Shown: positions 51,231-63,998 of the stretch, piece after piece | Layout: every line of letters begins with the position of its first letter | Position numbering within the stretch: position 1 is the first letter of the stretch | Source: Candidatus Terraquivivens tengchongensis | Lineage (GTDB): Archaea; Thermoproteota; Nitrososphaeria_A; Caldarchaeales; Wolframiiraptoraceae | DNA length: 64,000 nucleotides | NCBI GenBank assembly: GCA_023261845.1 | Contig: JALNJZ010000004.1 | Coordinates: 1-64,000, forward strand | Reading direction: 5' to 3' | The notes under the pieces: generated by a model | Database searches by the model: none | Told to the model about the DNA's origin: nothing | The model's input: only the letters and a program-made list of their open reading frames with translations | Made by a program: the position numbers and the translations under genes

Positions 51231-53285
51231 GTGCCAAATAAGCTCATAAAAGAAAAGAGCCCTTACCTGCTCAGAAACGCCCAAAGCCCCGTAAATTGGC
51301 ACCCATGGGGAGAGGAAGCTTTTAAGAGGGCGAAGGAGGAGGACAAGCCAATTCTTCTCAGCATAGGCTACAGCGCATGTTATTGGTGTATTGTAATGGA
51401 AAAGGAGACTTACGATAACCAAGAGGTCGCCGAATTGATTAATGAAAACTTCATTCCGATAAAGGTCGATAGGGAAGAACTGCCTGAGGTCGACGAGGTC
51501 TACATAAAGTTCGTGGAGCTCATGACAGGCCAGGCCGGATGGCCGTTAACGGTATTTCTCACACCAGACTTGAAACCTTTCTTTGGCGGAACTTACTTTC
51601 CTCCGTATAGGAGTGGGCCGTTGCCTGGACTTGTAGAAGTCTTGAGGGTGATAACAGATACATGGAAGAATAACAGAAATGACATAATTGAGGTCTCTAA
51701 TCGTGCCACGGAACTGCTCAAAAGAGCTTACTCTTACAAACCATCAAAGGATGTGTTATCCATGGACATCATGGAAGTTGCATACGAACAACTTGTAAGC
51801 AAGTACGATGAAGGGTACGGAGGCTTCTCTTTCCATCCAAAGTTTCCGATGCCAACTTTCCTATTCTTCCTGCATAGGTTTTATTGGAGGTATAGAAAGG
51901 ATTTTGCCATTAAAATGTCTTTAAACACGCTAACAAATATGGCTCTAGGCGGAATACATGACCATCTGGCTGGAGGATTTCACAGATATTCTACAGACAG
52001 GTACTGGATGATACCTCATTTCGAGAAAATGCTTTACGACAATGCGCTTTTAGCAAGGGCCTATCTCGAAGCATATCTTTTGACAAAGGACGATTTTATG
52101 AAAGGTGTTGCAATTAAAACCCTAGACTGGATGCTATCAGAGTTATCTTCACCAGAGGGTGGATTCTATACATCTATCGCGGCAGGATATGGGTACGATG
52201 AGGGGTCATACTACCTATGGACCATGGATGACATTGTAGGGTTACTGGGTGAAAAAATCGGCAAGATCGTATGTAAGTACTATGGCGTAACGCAACGAGG
52301 AAACTATGGGGGCGGTAAGAATGTTTTATACGTAAGGCGTTCAGCAGAATCTCTGGCATCGGAATTTAATTTATCCGTTGAGGAAGTTAAGAACATCGTT
52401 GAAGATTCAAATAAAATTTTATTAAACGAGAGGAGAAAAAGAAGGATGCCAGATATTGATGATAAAATACTAACTTCTTGGAATAGCCTTGCGATTTCTG
52501 CGATGTGTATGGGATTCCAGGTCTTAAGAAATGAAAGATATCTGAAGTCTGCTGTGTCCGCTGCAAACTTTATCGTAAACAACATGTATAAAAACGGTGT
52601 TCTATTGCGAAGGTACAGAGATTCAGATGCGGCATATGCGGGCACGTTAGAAGACTACGCGTTCTTTATGAATTGTCTTTTAGACCTATTTGAGACAACG
52701 TTCGACCCGAATTGGTTGGAGCTTGCGCTGGAATTGAAAGACGAAATCATAAACAGATTCTACGATAAAGAGCACGGCGGTTTTTTCAAGACGGAAGACA
52801 GGTTTTCCGATATAATCCTAAAAGACGGAAAAGATGGTTCTATACCATCTGGAAACTCATTTGCTATAATGAACTTGATCAGGTTATCAGAAATCCTTTG
52901 TGTTCCAAAGTTGTTAGAGATAGCGAAAAAATCCTTTTTGACATTCTGGGACCGTATAAAACAAAATCCCGTCGAGTATACGTATATGCTAACGGCACTG
53001 GATTACTACATATCTCCAAAGAGTGAGTTCATCTTCGTATGCAGCGATAACGATTGTGCGCCCTTTTTGCACATCCTATGGTCAGAGTTTATTCCGAACA
53101 AGGTCGTCTTAGTATGTAATTCGGAGAACAGGGAACGTATTGAGAGGATTACGCCCATTATCAAAGATAAGAAGGTTGTTGGGGGAGGGGCCTCAGTATA
53201 CATCTGCGAGAATTATACCTGCAAGCTACCGATCACGTCCTTGGACGGTTTCTATAACTACTTGAAAAGTCTGCGTTCTGCATAG
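51231..53285 (+). CDS. thioredoxin-domain / glycosidase-like YyaL (SSP411) family protein
   Basis: [44 protein letters not shown]. Confidence 0.9.
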
Positions 53286-53288
53286 TAA

Positions 53289-53378
53289 AGCCGGGGTCGG
53301 GATTTGCACCCGAGTAGAGCGGCTCTGCAGGCCGCCGCCTAGCTGCTCGGCCTTCGGTGGCTTTTCGCCAACCCCGGC
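53289..53378 (-). tRNA. tRNA-Cys(GCA) with 18-nt intron at position 8/9 (53353-53370)
   Basis: Spliced form GCCGGGG TG GCC GAGCAGCTA GGC G GCGGC CTGCAGA GCCGC TCTAC TCGGG TGCAAAT CCCGA CCCCGGC T folds to a full cloverleaf with U73. Confidence 0.88.
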
Positions 53379-53433
53379 CTTTCCCCGGCCGACGTTCTTG
53401 TATAGCACGGGGCTTATTGAATTTTTTGTTGTA

Positions 53434-55023
53434 TTAAGCCGGGATCTGGGGTAGGCTGAGCTTTACCTCCATCGGGCTGATCCTTAGAGCCTTCGAGACG
53501 TCGTAGCCCATGGACTTCGCAGACTTCTCTATGACCTTTACTACCAAGTTGGCGCCGAAGTGCGCTATTATATTGAACGCCAGCTTTAAGAACGGGTTCA
53601 GTCTTATCAACCGGGATGGAAGCCTGTTCAGCTCTATAAGTATGTGTCTCCATGCCCTATATATCACGCACATTTGCGCTTCAGTCAACTTACTCGCGTC
53701 AAAGAAATCCTCACCCCTCAACGCTCCCATTGGTACAAAGAAGAGCGGGGTGGCCGTGAAATGAGCCCTCTCGCCTATCTTCTCCGGCAGAATATTTTCC
53801 ATCGCATCTAAGAGCCTTACGGTATCCCAAGCATCGTCGTCAGTTTCTGTCGGAAGCCCTATCAGTAACGTGAAACCTGGGAACCAATAATTCATGTTAA
53901 ATATTGCTGTTCCATTTATCACAACTTCTGGCCACTCTTCAGGGCTGAAGGGTTTAGCCTTTAATGGCATGTACCTAGCAAGCAGGCTTCCGGAACCTGT
54001 CTCCATGCCGCACTGTATACCTATCCAATGTTCCGGTGAGCCCCTTAATATCTTAGAGAGTTGATGTATAAGCATAGGGTCGGCAACCGCCGGCGCTACC
54101 GTACCATGTGTTGGGTTGCTATGTCTTATACCTGGCACAGACATTACTGATGAGAAAAGTTCGACAAGCGCATCCCTATTTGGATAGAAATTCTTCTTAT
54201 CTTCAACTCTGTACAGGAAGATGTCCTCACTATGAATCCATGCATTGTGGATTCCGTGCTTTGTGTTAACTCTAATCTCTTCTAATACGTTTTCTATTGG
54301 TATGTACCTTGCAACCCTCAACGTCGGGTCACAGAACTCGCAATTTCTTCCGCAACCTCTCATGACCTCTACGAGGCCATGTATGCTCGGATTAACTATC
54401 AGCGGTATATCTTCCAGTCTTGGCGGCTTCGTAATCTTTATGGTCTCTGGTGGGTCGCCCTCCTCGAATTCGCGGAATAGCATCGGCGCCACATGATCGG
54501 TCTCACCTATCACGACGTGGTCTATGTTCAGCTCATTCCTTACATGAGATCTCACATCAAGATACCATGCACCAGGACCTCCCACGACAATTTTGAACTT
54601 AAAGCCGTTAGCCCTTCTTACTGCATTAAGTTTCTTAACGAGTTCCACGAAATATTTTTTCGAGAACGATGTGAATTTGCCGGTCGTGAATGCAAGGCTT
54701 AAAGGACCTAAGCCGAGCGGGTCCATCTCGTATATTCCGACGACCTTCGTTTCCTCACCGATAAAATTTTCAACATAGTCTGGGTGTGCAACCACTAAGT
54801 CATCCTCGCTATAAGCCCTACGTAAAGATGCCTCGATCTTCCTAAGACCATAAGGTGCGTAGGGCAACACACCATCCACGGCCGGTATTTGTGGTGCTAA
54901 AAATTTGAAGAGAAACTCAGGAACTTTCTCGGAGGGAGCGCAGGGAAGGAAATCCAAGAGCGGTACATGTCTGTATTCACTCGTCAAGGTTCTATCGCAA
55001 GTTAAGACTATCCGCCTACCCAT
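53434..55023 (-). CDS. B12-binding-like radical SAM protein
   Basis: APYGLRKIEA, GGPG, EVMRGCGRNCEFC, G.ETGS. Confidence 0.85.
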   Translation of the reverse strand: MGRRIVLTCDRTLTSEYRHVPLLDFLPCAPSEKVPEFLFKFLAPQIPAVDGVLPYAPYGLRKIEASLRRAYSEDDLVVAHPDYVENFIGEETKVVGIYEMDPLGLGPLSLAFTTGKFTSFSKKYFVELVKKLNAVRRANGFKFKIVVGGPGAWYLDVRSHVRNELNIDHVVIGETDHVAPMLFREFEEGDPPETIKITKPPRLEDIPLIVNPSIHGLVEVMRGCGRNCEFCDPTLRVARYIPIENVLEEIRVNTKHGIHNAWIHSEDIFLYRVEDKKNFYPNRDALVELFSSVMSVPGIRHSNPTHGTVAPAVADPMLIHQLSKILRGSPEHWIGIQCGMETGSGSLLARYMPLKAKPFSPEEWPEVVINGTAIFNMNYWFPGFTLLIGLPTETDDDAWDTVRLLDAMENILPEKIGERAHFTATPLFFVPMGALRGEDFFDASKLTEAQMCVIYRAWRHILIELNRLPSRLIRLNPFLKLAFNIIAHFGANLVVKVIEKSAKSMGYDVSKALRISPMEVKLSLPQIPA

Positions 55024-63513: not shown

Positions 63514-63536
63514 AGGGGGTGTACGATGAGTTTAGG

Positions 63537-63629
63537 CGCCGGGGGCGGGATTTGAACCCGCGCGGCCATAGGCCACCGGTTTAGCAGACCGGCCCCTTCG
63601 GCAGACCTACCGGGCTAGGGCACCCCGGC
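63537..63629 (-). tRNA. tRNA-Ser(GCT) with 10-nt intron at position 22/23 (63597-63606)
   Basis: Spliced form GCCGGGG TG CCCT AGCCCGGTA GGGG G CCGGT CTGCTAA ACCGG, long variable arm TGGCC-TAT-GGCCG, C GCGGG TTCAAAT CCCGC CCCCGGC G. Confidence 0.9.
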
Positions 63630-63896: not shown

Positions 63897-63998
63897 GAAT
63901 CTCAAAAAGAGAATTGAAAGTTTGGATGCCTTTTGCAATACCTGGTGCAAAGAGGCCGCAACATGTGAAGGTAAGAATCTCAAAAAGAGAATTGAAAG
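63897..63998 (+). CRISPR. start of CRISPR array (2 identical 24-bp repeats, one 54-nt spacer); probably continues beyond the window
   Basis: GAATCTCAAAAAGAGAATTGAAAG at 63897-63920 and 63975-63998, with the typical ATTGAAAG end. Confidence 0.88.

Follow-up and report, generated by a model that had tools for sequence, protein, structure and literature searches.

The only tRNA-Cys gene in the genome studied here is interrupted between positions 8 and 9 by an 18-nt intron whose bulge-helix-bulge splice motif takes up the 5' strand of the acceptor stem, and an exact second copy of that strand lies a few nucleotides upstream. Comparative sequence evidence and modelled folding make it fairly likely that this leader copy holds the 3' end of the precursor and leaves the real 5' strand free for splicing. 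This is what the original prediction had proposed, on the argument that the copy could pair with the 3' strand; the support that we can add is comparative and thermodynamic, and it suggests that the copy is probably a functional placeholder strand. On the prevailing view, archaea tolerate a tRNA intron at any site that allows a bulge-helix-bulge motif. To our knowledge, earlier work has not addressed how a motif that consumes part of the acceptor stem can win against the helix that is otherwise the most stable one in the tRNA. A surrogate strand encoded in the leader would be a simple structural answer to this competition. The leader would then join the exon-intron pair as a third player in defining the splice site, and the surrogate would predict the order of processing and constrain where introns can be gained.

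A tRNA-Cys gene with an intron between positions 8 and 9

In the window, that is, the whole stretch of 64,000 nucleotides that was analysed, the tRNA-Cys(GCA) gene with its 18-nt insert spans 53289-53378 on the minus strand. Direct reading and in-silico splicing place tRNA positions 1-8, GCCGGGGT, in exon 1 (53371-53378). The intron (53353-53370) contains a GGC/GCC inner helix with the loop GAAAA, followed by ACCG and AA. Exon 2 (53289-53352), delimited by a local Rfam match and by ARAGORN after splicing, covers positions 9-73, from G9 to U73, and holds the D arm, the GCA anticodon arm, the T arm, the 3' acceptor strand CCCCGGC and the discriminator U73, read as a T at 53289 after CCCCGGC. CCA is absent from the encoded 3' end. 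U73 is an identity element of tRNA-Cys, and all tRNA-Cys orthologues in the order Caldarchaeales end in GGCT.

Gene finders pass over this locus. The Rfam tRNA model matches it locally (53297-53352, model positions 9-63), scoring 26.1 bits where the gathering threshold is 29, and ARAGORN calls no tRNA there, either in the genomic sequence or in an unspliced control. After in-silico removal of 53353-53370, ARAGORN calls a tRNA-Cys(GCA) cloverleaf with the anticodon in a 7-nt loop. The minus strand reads as it had been quoted, and together with this call it bears out the claim of a tRNA-Cys with an 18-nt intron at 8/9. As ARAGORN misses the sole tRNA-Cys and the Rfam score is below threshold, such genomes can seem to be without a tRNA-Cys.

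In the splice motif, the outer helix pairs g-1, G1 and C2 with G10, C11 and C12, and the central helix pairs C3-G6 with ACCG by three Watson-Crick pairs and one G.A mismatch. The two bulges, G7 U8 | U and A A | G9, would each be cut after the second nucleotide. The canonical archaeal motif is described as a 4-bp helix between two 3-nt bulges (PMC4090602), and the motif drawn here has that geometry, with the bulges on opposite strands; constraint folding accepts it, and the predicted hBHBh' motif with 3-nt bulges and one G-A mismatch is thereby upheld. Intronless orthologues read GCCGGGGT and then directly GGCCGAG, and because the spliced product must equal them, the splice points are unique. 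Exon 2 is identical (100%) to that of an intronless gene of the same genus. A second genus has a 23-nt intron with the same geometry, a perfect CGGG/CCCG central helix and a 6-bp inner helix that includes a compensatory change from C-G to U-A. The motif takes up positions -1 to 8 and 9 to 12 together with the intron between them, and its formation is impossible as long as the acceptor stem holds the real 5' strand; the predicted incompatibility with the acceptor and D stems is therefore correct. Two other parsings were rejected: with the first copy as the true 5' strand, no single excision gives U8, and an 11-nt tandem duplication fails because the 4 nt ahead of the first copy are unlike the spacer.

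This locus is the only tRNA-Cys candidate in the 99.42%-complete Caldarchaeales (Aigarchaeota) genome of this hot-spring archaeon, and a GCA anticodon arm with a T arm after it occurs a single time genome-wide, in the window. A second ARAGORN "Cys" call, on contig C11, was rejected since its discriminator is A73 and its acceptor, D and T arms are those of a tRNA-Gly; the intact tRNA-Cys elsewhere that would have pointed to a pseudogene was thus not found. The genome also encodes CysRS (393 bits), RtcB (579 bits), an archaeal RNase P RNA (165.9 bits) and, in two ORFs (189 and 192 aa), proteins that carry the EndA catalytic domain (PF01974; 105 and 61.5 bits). Heterotetrameric EndA together with non-canonical introns has been described from Aigarchaeota (PMC3082918, PMC5829648). 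The neighbouring genes encode a DUF255 thioredoxin-like protein and a radical-SAM protein, and there is no integrase or transposase beside the tRNA-Cys gene. A "terminator" predicted here by a sigma-70 promoter scan was discarded, as it is the repeat read on the other strand and such a scan is unsuited to archaea.

RNA data were available as assembled contigs, from which rare forms are dropped, of three metatranscriptome runs, and these contain no splice joint. The one contig over the locus, from run X16 (53181-53550), is unspliced and may represent DNA or precursor; the contigs of X20 carry the intronless tRNA-Cys genes of relatives, and those of X22 have no match. The absence of spliced RNA from these contigs, like the failure of ARAGORN and of the Rfam gathering threshold, would fit a decaying pseudogene, or a gene that is never spliced and whose upstream repeat arose by chance. 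We consider this extremely unlikely: a genome with a CysRS has no other tRNA-Cys candidate, 62/64 positions of exon 2 and 17/18 of the intron are invariant in five species of the genus with diverged flanks, and the motif geometry is kept, with its compensatory change, in the second genus. Judged from its sequence, the locus is the functional and sole tRNA-Cys(GCA) gene, with a real 8/9 intron.

The leader copy in relatives and in other tRNA genes

The leader copy GCCGGGG (53383-53389, minus strand) equals tRNA positions 1-7 and is complementary to the 3' acceptor strand. The spacer aaag (53379-53382) separates it from position 1, and the last G of this spacer is position -1, a possible partner of C12 when the outer helix of the motif forms. 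Direct reading thus agrees with the prediction of an exact copy 4 nt upstream. A TATA-like box, TTCAATAA, lies at 53414-53421 on the same strand, a few nucleotides past the stop codon that ends the radical-SAM ORF (53434-55023), and presumably serves the tRNA gene as promoter. Five species of the genus keep it, in the form TTCAATAA or CTCAATAG. As had been noted, the copy begins about 24 nt past the box, where the transcript should begin: the distance from the end of the box is 24 nt in both genera and 23 in one species, and in intronless relatives of the family 31-33 nt separate box and +1. From this spacing to the putative box, the transcript probably starts at the copy or within about 2 nt of it, and the start could lie inside the copy.

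With both strands counted, the 64-kb window holds six instances of GCCGGGG where 4.9 are expected, and this near-expected abundance does not account for two same-strand copies 4 nt apart. Among 44 T-arm/acceptor candidates genome-wide, the tRNA-Cys gene is the only one with two separate exact upstream 5' strands; tRNA-Gly(TCC) has two overlapping near-matches of its 5' strand, 3 nt apart. By a rough estimate, an exact 7-mer at a spacer of 3-8 nt has a chance of about 4e-4 per gene, and it was seen in 10/11 intron-bearing genes, which again speaks against a chance repeat beside a pseudogene.

Across the order, 7 of 54 tRNA-Cys loci have an 8/9 insert, and the copy is exact in all seven, at spacers of 4-6 nt (AAAG, AAAG, TAGG, TAAAAG, GAAG, CAAG and GAAG) that vary in sequence and length and share a constant final G. 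The 43 scorable intronless loci include one exact copy (spacer 0) and one 6/7 match, and none of the 43 has a copy at a spacer of 4-6 nt. We also searched 401 genomes of the phylum with the leader copy as no criterion (36 rows). True 8/9 inserts were present in 11 genomes, each with the leader element, so that no relative in this search has the intron and lacks the repeat, the combination that the original prediction had named as a refutation. Ten of these copies are exact. The divergent one, GCTGGGG, has a C-to-U change that leaves it 6/7 identical to the 5' strand and able to pair fully with CCCCGGC through a U.G pair. Since every one of the 11 genes has GCCGGGG as its acceptor stem, true two-sided covariation is absent, this single U.G being the sole variation. 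An 8/9 intron outside GCCGGGG-type tRNAs was found neither with the pattern GCGGGGG N3-8 GCGGGGGT (23 rows) nor with the copy-blind pattern GCSSGGGT (35 rows).

The intron-bearing tRNA-Cys genes belong to two genera of the order and to a third family. Their introns look homologous between both genera and G398, with TGGC..GCC.CCGA. in common. In two further families the 8/9 insert sits in tRNA-Ser; these introns are unrelated to the others, and the spacers measure 3 and 6 nt. The inner helix of the tRNA-Ser inserts is only 1-2 bp long in G311 and G401, which makes their motif a relaxed one, and reaches 5 bp in G368. The cases of intron plus copy come from few lineages and probably go back to 3 to 5 events, and related genomes do not count as independent.

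Within the genus, all 7 positions of the copy are invariant in the five species, compared to 2/24 positions just upstream of it and 1/30 in the trailer; the flanking radical-SAM protein is 86-90% identical among the same species. Pair counts were taken from anchored slices, as a MAFFT alignment put a gap inside the copy of one row. Exon 2 of this genus is 91-94% identical to that of another family and 83-86% to that of its own family. The intronless tRNA-Cys gene of the same genus (G002) is without a leader copy and lies at a non-syntenic locus, so it does not demonstrate a joint loss of intron and copy in place. A metagenome scan returned six stretches, of which one is identical to the window over the region read and five are intronless, and no variants.

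It is conceivable that the copy has no role in splicing and was left behind when the intron arrived, or when the 5' end of the gene was altered earlier. A mobile element carrying a 5' part of a tRNA might have integrated and been partly deleted, a transposon might have left a footprint in the form of a 7-bp target duplication, or slippage might have occurred. Copy and intron would then travel as one inherited or transferred unit. A mobile-element model in which a 5' tRNA fragment forms a direct repeat has been proposed in the same order (PMC3293823). The homologous look of the tRNA-Cys introns and the closeness of exon 2 to that of another family fit transfer as a unit, and direct repeats of the 5' strand also occur at tRNAs without an 8/9 intron. 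A neutral scar is expected to decay, however, and the copy is invariant between flanks that are not. Moreover, what is duplicated never departs from the exact 7 nt that pair with the 3' strand, spacers of unrelated sequence range from 3 up to 8 nt, the element recurs with the unrelated tRNA-Ser introns, the sole divergent copy has changed in a way that preserves pairing, and neither integrase nor transposase is encoded beside the gene. A by-product without function is therefore unlikely in our opinion. A scar that was later kept because it had become useful would still agree with a placeholder strand.

The leader copy is not exclusive to genes with an 8/9 intron. Without that intron, copies precede tRNA-Ser(GGA) in G113 (spacer 7), tRNA-Asn(GTT) in G137 and G158 (spacers 5 and 4) and tRNA-Leu(CAA) in G039 and G031 (GCGGGGG, spacer 3), and an intronless tRNA-Cys in G061 has a tandem copy. 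Such copies, two of which recur across families, would fit selection for something other than freeing the 5' strand, and so would the fixed 24-nt distance from the TATA-like box. The copy might set promoter output as an initially transcribed sequence, or form part of a leader structure by which RNase P is modulated; it might also shield the 3' end, or keep the acceptor/T minihelix in shape until 3' processing and CCA addition have taken place. The last two, where they act while the real 5' strand is engaged, are variants of the placeholder explanation and no rivals to it. Against such another role, every intron-bearing gene has the copy, while no intronless orthologue keeps it at the usual spacer and the intronless gene of the same genus lacks it. 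We regard another role as quite improbable, and a placeholder strand for splicing remains our preferred explanation.

Folding energetics and a proposed processing pathway

Energies of defined conformers were evaluated with ViennaRNA under the nearest-neighbour model. At 37 C, the precursor of our gene has -41.0 kcal/mol in a cloverleaf-like fold, -41.4 with the motif formed and the copy paired and -25.8 with the motif alone; at 75 C, the values are -12.0, -12.9 and -4.1. For the second genus, they are -46.0, -50.8 and -35.8 kcal/mol at 37 C. Without the copy, the splice-competent fold of our gene is thus about 15 kcal/mol less favourable than the cloverleaf-like fold at 37 C, and the two are level when the copy pairs. 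After splicing, the native cloverleaf (-35.3) and a cloverleaf paired with the copy (-35.5) are again level. At 37 and 60 C, the copy is bound to the 3' strand in the minimum-energy fold; for our gene, an extended hairpin that leaves the copy unused is lowest in energy at 75 and 85 C.

In the ensemble, the strict motif stays improbable when the copy is present, at 2e-6 to 2e-4 in our genus and at about 1e-3 to 8e-3 in the second genus. In the latter, shuffled copies equal the real one, and removal of the copy costs 1.6- to 12-fold. This modelled gain for the second genus is small, and it adds to what speaks for another role of the copy. The shuffle is a poor control, as a shuffled G5C2 heptamer still pairs with the C-rich 3' strand, and we relied on the conformer energies instead.

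We propose a pathway by which the leader copy would act in vivo. The hairpin of the splice motif would form first, during transcription. The emerging 3' acceptor strand would then pair with the free leader copy and not invade the motif, giving a tRNA-like body with a protruding splice motif. A putative (alpha-beta)2-type EndA would cut after U8 and before G9, and RtcB would ligate the exons. The real 5' strand could then displace the copy, aided by the D stem and the tertiary core, and RNase P would cut off the leader including the copy, making the swap irreversible.

Whether this reflects a general rule for how archaeal tRNA genes are built is more doubtful. We suggest only tentatively that an intron that needs the acceptor 5' strand persists only if the leader supplies a surrogate for the 3' end. 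If so, the leader copy would represent a new class of element that acts in cis on the pre-tRNA and serves it as a built-in chaperone, and the order from splicing to strand exchange to RNase P would be obligatory, helping to explain which intron sites are permissible. The copies at tRNA-Asn, tRNA-Leu and tRNA-Ser genes without the intron would then be either pre-adaptations or remnants from introns since lost. By the same logic, introns that adjoin the 3' strand might have copies in the trailer.

Relation to known systems

The original prediction had tentatively supposed that neither 8/9 introns nor such a leader had been described. The first half of this needs correction, in that the position alone does not make the intron novel: introns located in the acceptor stem and at junctions form a known class (PMC12397907; bioRxiv 10.64898/2026.10.13.758758). 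PMC4090602 names 3/4, 20/21, 22/23, 25/26, 29/30, 30/31, 45/46, 53/54, 56/57 and 59/60 among the non-canonical positions, and 8/9 is absent from this list, which ends in "etc." The second half fared better, since a leader copy of an acceptor strand, like an explicit 8/9 intron, is undescribed in the available text of the literature searched, a scope that covers papers other than the main intron catalogues.

The closest known counterparts of this intron are the non-canonical introns of Thermoproteota (Thermoproteales and Caldiarchaeum), which are cut by an (alpha-beta)2 EndA and described with the same motif, the same cuts and the same pairing between exon and intron (PMC4090602, PMC3082918, PMC5829648). 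Two ORFs with an EndA domain, RtcB and a short intron of 18-23 nt are further points of likeness. Unlike in those introns, the tRNA-Cys motif consumes the 5' strand of the acceptor stem, and the 8/9 intron always comes with an accessory leader copy that lies outside the exon-intron unit.

In the split and permuted tRNAs of Nanoarchaeum, Caldivirga, Thermofilum and Cyanidioschyzon, sequence outside the tRNA likewise pairs to enable the splicing endonuclease, and RNase P is described as acting after that enzyme, as in our proposal (PMC4090602, PMC3218864, PMC3978253). There, leader and trailer pair together to build the motif, whereas here the leader copy is outside the motif; it duplicates an exon strand and would occupy the normal partner of that exon. 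The tRNA-Cys gene is contiguous and colinear, and its leader element equals the 5' strand and is not the complement of a trailer, so it is not a split or permuted gene.

The mobile-element model for Caldiarchaeum, which belongs to the same archaeal order, places a tRNA-Thr fragment upstream of an intron-gaining tRNA-Thr; that fragment is a long 5' piece, 1.8 kb (or >500 kb) off, flanking a recombinase-encoding element (PMC3293823). Our repeat is unlike it in being exactly 7 nt long, conserved and located in the leader 3-8 nt off, with no mobile gene nearby. Duplication of an integrase attachment site gives a direct tRNA repeat of tens of nucleotides that flanks an integrated element with its integrase. 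Here the repeat has 7 nt, lies 4 nt away and has integrase-free neighbours, which does not fit such a duplication.

Alternative pairing also underlies attenuator anti-terminators and riboswitch expression platforms, where two helices that exclude each other depend on the same strand and the outcome is set by a third strand. The leader switch proposed here would by analogy also consist of two exclusive helices that compete for one strand, with a third strand settling the choice. It would differ from them in that no ligand or ribosome takes part: the proposed switch would be resolved by EndA and then by RNase P, which would remove the competitor.

Anatomy of the tRNA-Cys gene and its splice motif

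The tRNA-Cys(GCA) gene of the window lies on the minus strand in an intergenic region, between a DUF255 thioredoxin-like ORF (plus strand, end 53285) and a radical-SAM ORF (minus strand, end 53434). On the minus strand, a TATA-like box (TTCAATAA, 53421-53414) is followed by 24 nt of leader, the heptamer GCCGGGG (53389-53383), which repeats tRNA positions 1 to 7 (the copy), a spacer (aaag), exon 1 (GCCGGGGT, positions 1 to 8, 53378-53371), an insert of 18 nt (53370-53353) and an exon 2 of 64 nt (53352-53289) with the D arm, the GCA anticodon arm, the T arm, the 3' acceptor strand CCCCGGC and a final T. This confirms the arrangement from copy to exon 2 described in the original prediction. ARAGORN found no gene at this locus in the genomic sequence, with the intron option on or off, and the local Rfam tRNA match begins exactly at 53352, from model position 9 onward, with 26.1 bits (gathering score, 29). 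After in-silico removal of 53353-53370, ARAGORN returned a tRNA-Cys(GCA), and the unspliced control returned nothing. Because intronless orthologues join GCCGGGGT straight to GGCCGAG, with no gap, the splice points are unique.

In the canonical bulge-helix-bulge motif, two 3-nt bulges enclose a central helix of 4 bp, and the exon strand lying 5' of the first cut is part of that helix (as outlined in PMC4090602). The motif of tRNA-Cys has this geometry, with positions 3 to 8 taking the role of 32 to 37. In the central helix, C3-G6 pairs with ACCG close to the intron's 3' end through three Watson-Crick pairs and one G.A. The bulges are G7 U8/U on the 5' side and A A/G9 on the 3' side (a slash marks the cut), the inner helix GGC/GCC closes a GAAAA loop, and the outer helix joins g-1, G1 and C2 with G10, C11 and C12. 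Since positions 1 to 6 and 10 to 12 are used, the motif excludes the acceptor and D stems, which bears out the incompatibility that had been predicted. A second genus of the order Caldarchaeales (Aigarchaeota), from another family, has a 23-nt intron with a perfect central helix (CGGG/CCCG), and its 6-bp inner helix carries a compensatory C-G to U-A change between the two species.

The genome to which the window belongs (1.22 Mb, 14 contigs, 45% G+C, rated 99.42% complete; the window is contig C6) encodes the EndA catalytic domain in two ORFs, as well as RtcB, the archaeal RNase P RNA and CysRS. A heterotetrameric EndA together with non-canonical introns within the D, V and T arms is reported for Caldiarchaeum (PMC3082918). 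The same tRNA-Cys arrangement is present in public records of Candidatus Terraquivivens and Candidatus Pelearchaeum. In the whole genome, only the window locus has a GCA anticodon arm with a T arm after it; as the sole such gene, it must therefore work and its insert must be removed. A second intact tRNA-Cys, which the original prediction had named as pointing to a pseudogene, is absent from this genome, the candidate on contig C11 being Gly-like. That candidate (C11:2162-2249, minus strand; according to ARAGORN a tRNA-Cys(GCA) interrupted by 13 nt of intron) matches tRNA-Gly in its acceptor, D and T arms, bears A73, and is probably a tRNA-Gly(CCC) whose intron has a relaxed bulge-helix-loop form; however its anticodon loop is read, U33 is lacking.

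ARAGORN and the Rfam model together give only about 44 tRNA genes in this genome, with several wrong anticodon labels, and several expected anticodons (e.g., Trp, Lys-CUU and Val-GAC) are absent from the calls. Many of its tRNAs probably carry non-canonical introns that neither parses. For tRNA-Ser(GCT) in the window (63535-63629, minus strand), ARAGORN sets the start at 63615, yet the strand that pairs with the 3' end (GCCGGGG) is 63623-63629; the gene scores only 26.7 bits with the Rfam tRNA model, and its 5' part is unusual or interrupted. At the end of the window, two CRISPR direct repeats lie on the minus strand (63897-63920 and 63975-63998; Rfam CRISPR-DR45, 37.4 bits each), and the array probably extends past the window end.

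Association of the leader copy with the 8/9 intron

On both strands of the window, GCCGGGG occurs 6 times (4.9 expected), and only one of the 44 tRNA candidates genome-wide, the window tRNA-Cys, has two separate exact 5' strands upstream. We searched 76 genomes of the order; a tRNA-Cys match was present in 52, and 54 loci were examined. Three were dropped, two of them cut or chimeric at contig ends and one with an insert after the anticodon, which by eye has neither an 8/9 insert nor a copy. The 8/9 insert was found at 7 of the 54 loci, in five species of the window's own genus and in the two species of the second genus, and all seven carry an exact copy with a spacer of 4 to 6 nt. For 43 of the 44 insert-free loci the best match to the own 5' strand within 30 nt upstream could be scored: it was 7/7 in one (G061, spacer 0), 6/7 in one, 5/7 in 8, 4/7 in 20, 3/7 in 12 and 2/7 in one. 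The tandem copies with spacer 0 at intronless tRNA-Cys genes (exact GCCCGGG at L070 in G061; GCTCGGG, 6/7, at L062 in G058) lie mostly upstream of the expected transcript start, going by a TATA spacing of 25-26 nt.

A search of 401 genomes of the phylum left the leader unspecified (GCCGGGGT, 10-40 nt, GGCCGAR-N-R-G) and returned 36 rows. In 12 of these, from 11 genomes, a tRNA carries an insert between positions 8 and 9. Another 3 are ordinary tRNAs whose D and anticodon arms are bridged by the pattern, and for 21 a 3' acceptor strand is missing within 260-300 nt. The seven genomes of the order and four others make up the 11. G398, from another family, has a tRNA-Cys with an intron built as in the window, a spacer of 8 nt and further introns. 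In G311 and G401 the gene is a tRNA-Ser(UGA) whose insert measures 18 and 15 nt, respectively, with a 6-nt spacer and a motif that has a perfect CGGG/CCCG helix and almost no inner helix. The tRNA-Ser of G368 has several introns; its 8/9 insert is 22 nt long, with an inner helix of 5 bp and a spacer of 3 nt. The leader element is present in all 11 genomes and exact in ten, so that relatives with the intron and no leader repeat, which had been named as evidence against a role for the copy, number 0 of 11. In G368 the element (GCTGGGG) differs from the 5' strand, yet it pairs with CCCCGGC at 7/7 positions through U.G, a variant predicted by pairing at the RNA level and not by repeat identity at the DNA level. 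The acceptor is identical in every 8/9-insert case, and a wider pattern allowing four acceptor types (35 rows) gave no further case. A scan of all prokaryotes (one genome per species; a tRNA-Cys-specific, copy-blind pattern) gave 21 stretches, four of them real and all four with the copy; the others are one bacterial tRNA-Cys without insert and 16 non-tRNA stretches from high-G+C bacteria.

The reverse search (GCCGGGG, 3-8 nt, GCCGGGGT) gave 34 rows, and a reversed-pattern control matched in roughly two dozen genomes. Of the 13 rows at tRNA 5' ends, 10 have the 8/9 insert. The tRNA-Ser(GGA) of G113, without insert, has its copy only 6 nt after a TATA-like box, and this copy is probably untranscribed. 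Intronless tRNA-Asn(GTT) genes in G137 (L112) and G158 (L197) have an exact copy with spacers of 5 and 4 nt; these genomes represent two other families of the phylum, and the leader copy recurs in this one isoacceptor. The same search with GCGGGGG (23 rows) found one lineage, the tRNA-Leu(CAA) of G039 (L151) and G031 (L152) of the same order, with an exact copy 25 nt after an AT-rich box, a 3-nt spacer, a canonical anticodon-loop intron, no 8/9 insert and, in G039, one more insert. By a rough estimate, an exact heptamer at spacer 3-8 arises by chance in about 4e-4 per gene, or about once if the sample holds roughly 2,800 tRNA genes of the GCCGGGG type (a number extrapolated from 7 in the own genome). 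The copy is not exclusive to the 8/9 intron; the 8/9 intron was never seen without the copy in these searches. At L108 and L109 (G381, G203) and L110 (G162), GCCGGGG, a short spacer and GCCGGGGT directly follow TATA-like boxes; the downstream sequence is not tRNA-like, is conserved between two genomes, and may represent a small RNA or a tRNA piece.

Across the five own-genus species, in which the upstream radical-SAM protein is 86-90% identical, the copy is invariant at 7/7 positions, the intron at 17/18 and exon 2 at 62/64, against 2/24 for the leader from TATA to copy and 1/30 for the trailer (its first 30 nt). Spacers differ in both sequence and length, and their final nucleotide is always G, able to pair with C12. 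The predicted distance of about 24 nt from the TATA-like octamer to the copy holds for the own genus, with 24 nt and in one species 23 nt, and for the other genus, where CTCAAAAA precedes the copy by 24 nt. The family's intronless relatives have the box 31-33 nt before +1, and the three other lineages have an AT-rich box about 20-27 nt upstream of the copy, ambiguous in their AT-rich leaders. This spacing fits a transcript start at or just before the copy.

The tRNA-Cys introns seem to be related across the three groups. In the own genus, exon 2 has 91-94% identity to its counterpart in another family, against 83-86% to that in its own, and the gene's acceptor and T-loop variants are common to that other family; the sequences hint at a lateral replacement of the gene. 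An intronless tRNA-Cys gene of the same genus lies at a non-syntenic locus. From the related introns, these identities and this locus, it is therefore plausible that the gene, or its 5' part, was transferred as a unit, comparable to the mobile-element model proposed for Caldiarchaeum (PMC3293823). Such transfer could account for the co-inheritance of intron and copy within tRNA-Cys, but it does not account for an invariant copy, for the copy's recurrence alongside unrelated tRNA-Ser introns or for the pairing-preserving GCTGGGG. Copies at tRNAs without the 8/9 intron suggest that 5'-strand repeats now and then arise independently, and these may be what permits an 8/9 intron to survive.

The copy as a proposed placeholder for the acceptor strand

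Defined conformers were evaluated with ViennaRNA (kcal/mol). For the own gene, the cloverleaf-like fold with the real 5' strand in the acceptor stem has -41.0 at 37 C and -12.0 at 75 C, the motif with the 3' strand bound by the copy -41.4 and -12.9, and the motif with the 3' strand free -25.8 and -4.1. The corresponding values for the second genus are -46.0 and -13.5, -50.8 and -17.7, and -35.8 and -9.5. At 37 and 60 C, the copy is paired to the 3' strand in the unconstrained minimum-energy fold of the own precursor; with the copy removed in silico, the acceptor helix contains the real strand at all temperatures computed. After in-silico splicing, the native cloverleaf (-35.3) and the copy-paired form (-35.5) are level, so the swap would need to be driven by the D stem and tertiary core, together with irreversible cleavage by RNase P. 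Several results speak against a placeholder role: even when the copy is present, the ensemble gives the strict motif a very low probability, the own genus prefers another register of the 5' hairpin, shuffled copies equal the real one in the ensemble calculation for the second genus, and the own gene has an extended hairpin as its minimum-energy fold at 75-85 C. Nearest-neighbour models leave out tertiary structure, proteins and the growth temperature of the organisms, and the energies illustrate the logic of a strand swap, short of proof.

Alongside the observed anatomy, enzymes, intron-copy association and conservation, we infer a series of steps in which the copy would be transcribed, would pair in vivo and would be needed. 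Because all parts of the motif lie in the first ~50 nt of the transcript, it can form before the 3' strand exists, and it would do so early. The emerging 3' strand would then meet a free, perfectly complementary 5'-terminal heptamer, the copy; in its absence, the 3' strand would be expected to invade the motif, the thermodynamically favoured outcome. EndA and RtcB would act on the motif next, the real strand would displace the copy, and RNase P would remove the leader last. The original interpretation, that the copy frees the 5' strand for splicing, is supported, as a probable placeholder role, by comparative and thermodynamic evidence.

Relation to known tRNA introns

Non-canonical introns are reported at many positions, including acceptor-stem regions and junctions (PMC4090602, PMC12397907, bioRxiv 10.64898/2026.10.13.758758), and, so that introns close to the ends are caught, tRNAscan-SE 2.0 is described as lengthening its candidates by 60 nt (PMC8450103). 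Because acceptor-stem and junction introns are already known, the 8/9 intron adds one more member to the known class of non-canonical introns. For a leader copy of the acceptor strand, a literature search whose reach stopped short of the main intron-position catalogues and supplements found no description. Among known systems, split and permuted tRNAs come closest in logic; in them, leader and trailer pair to make the motif, whereas in this tRNA-Cys the leader would stand in for an exon strand.
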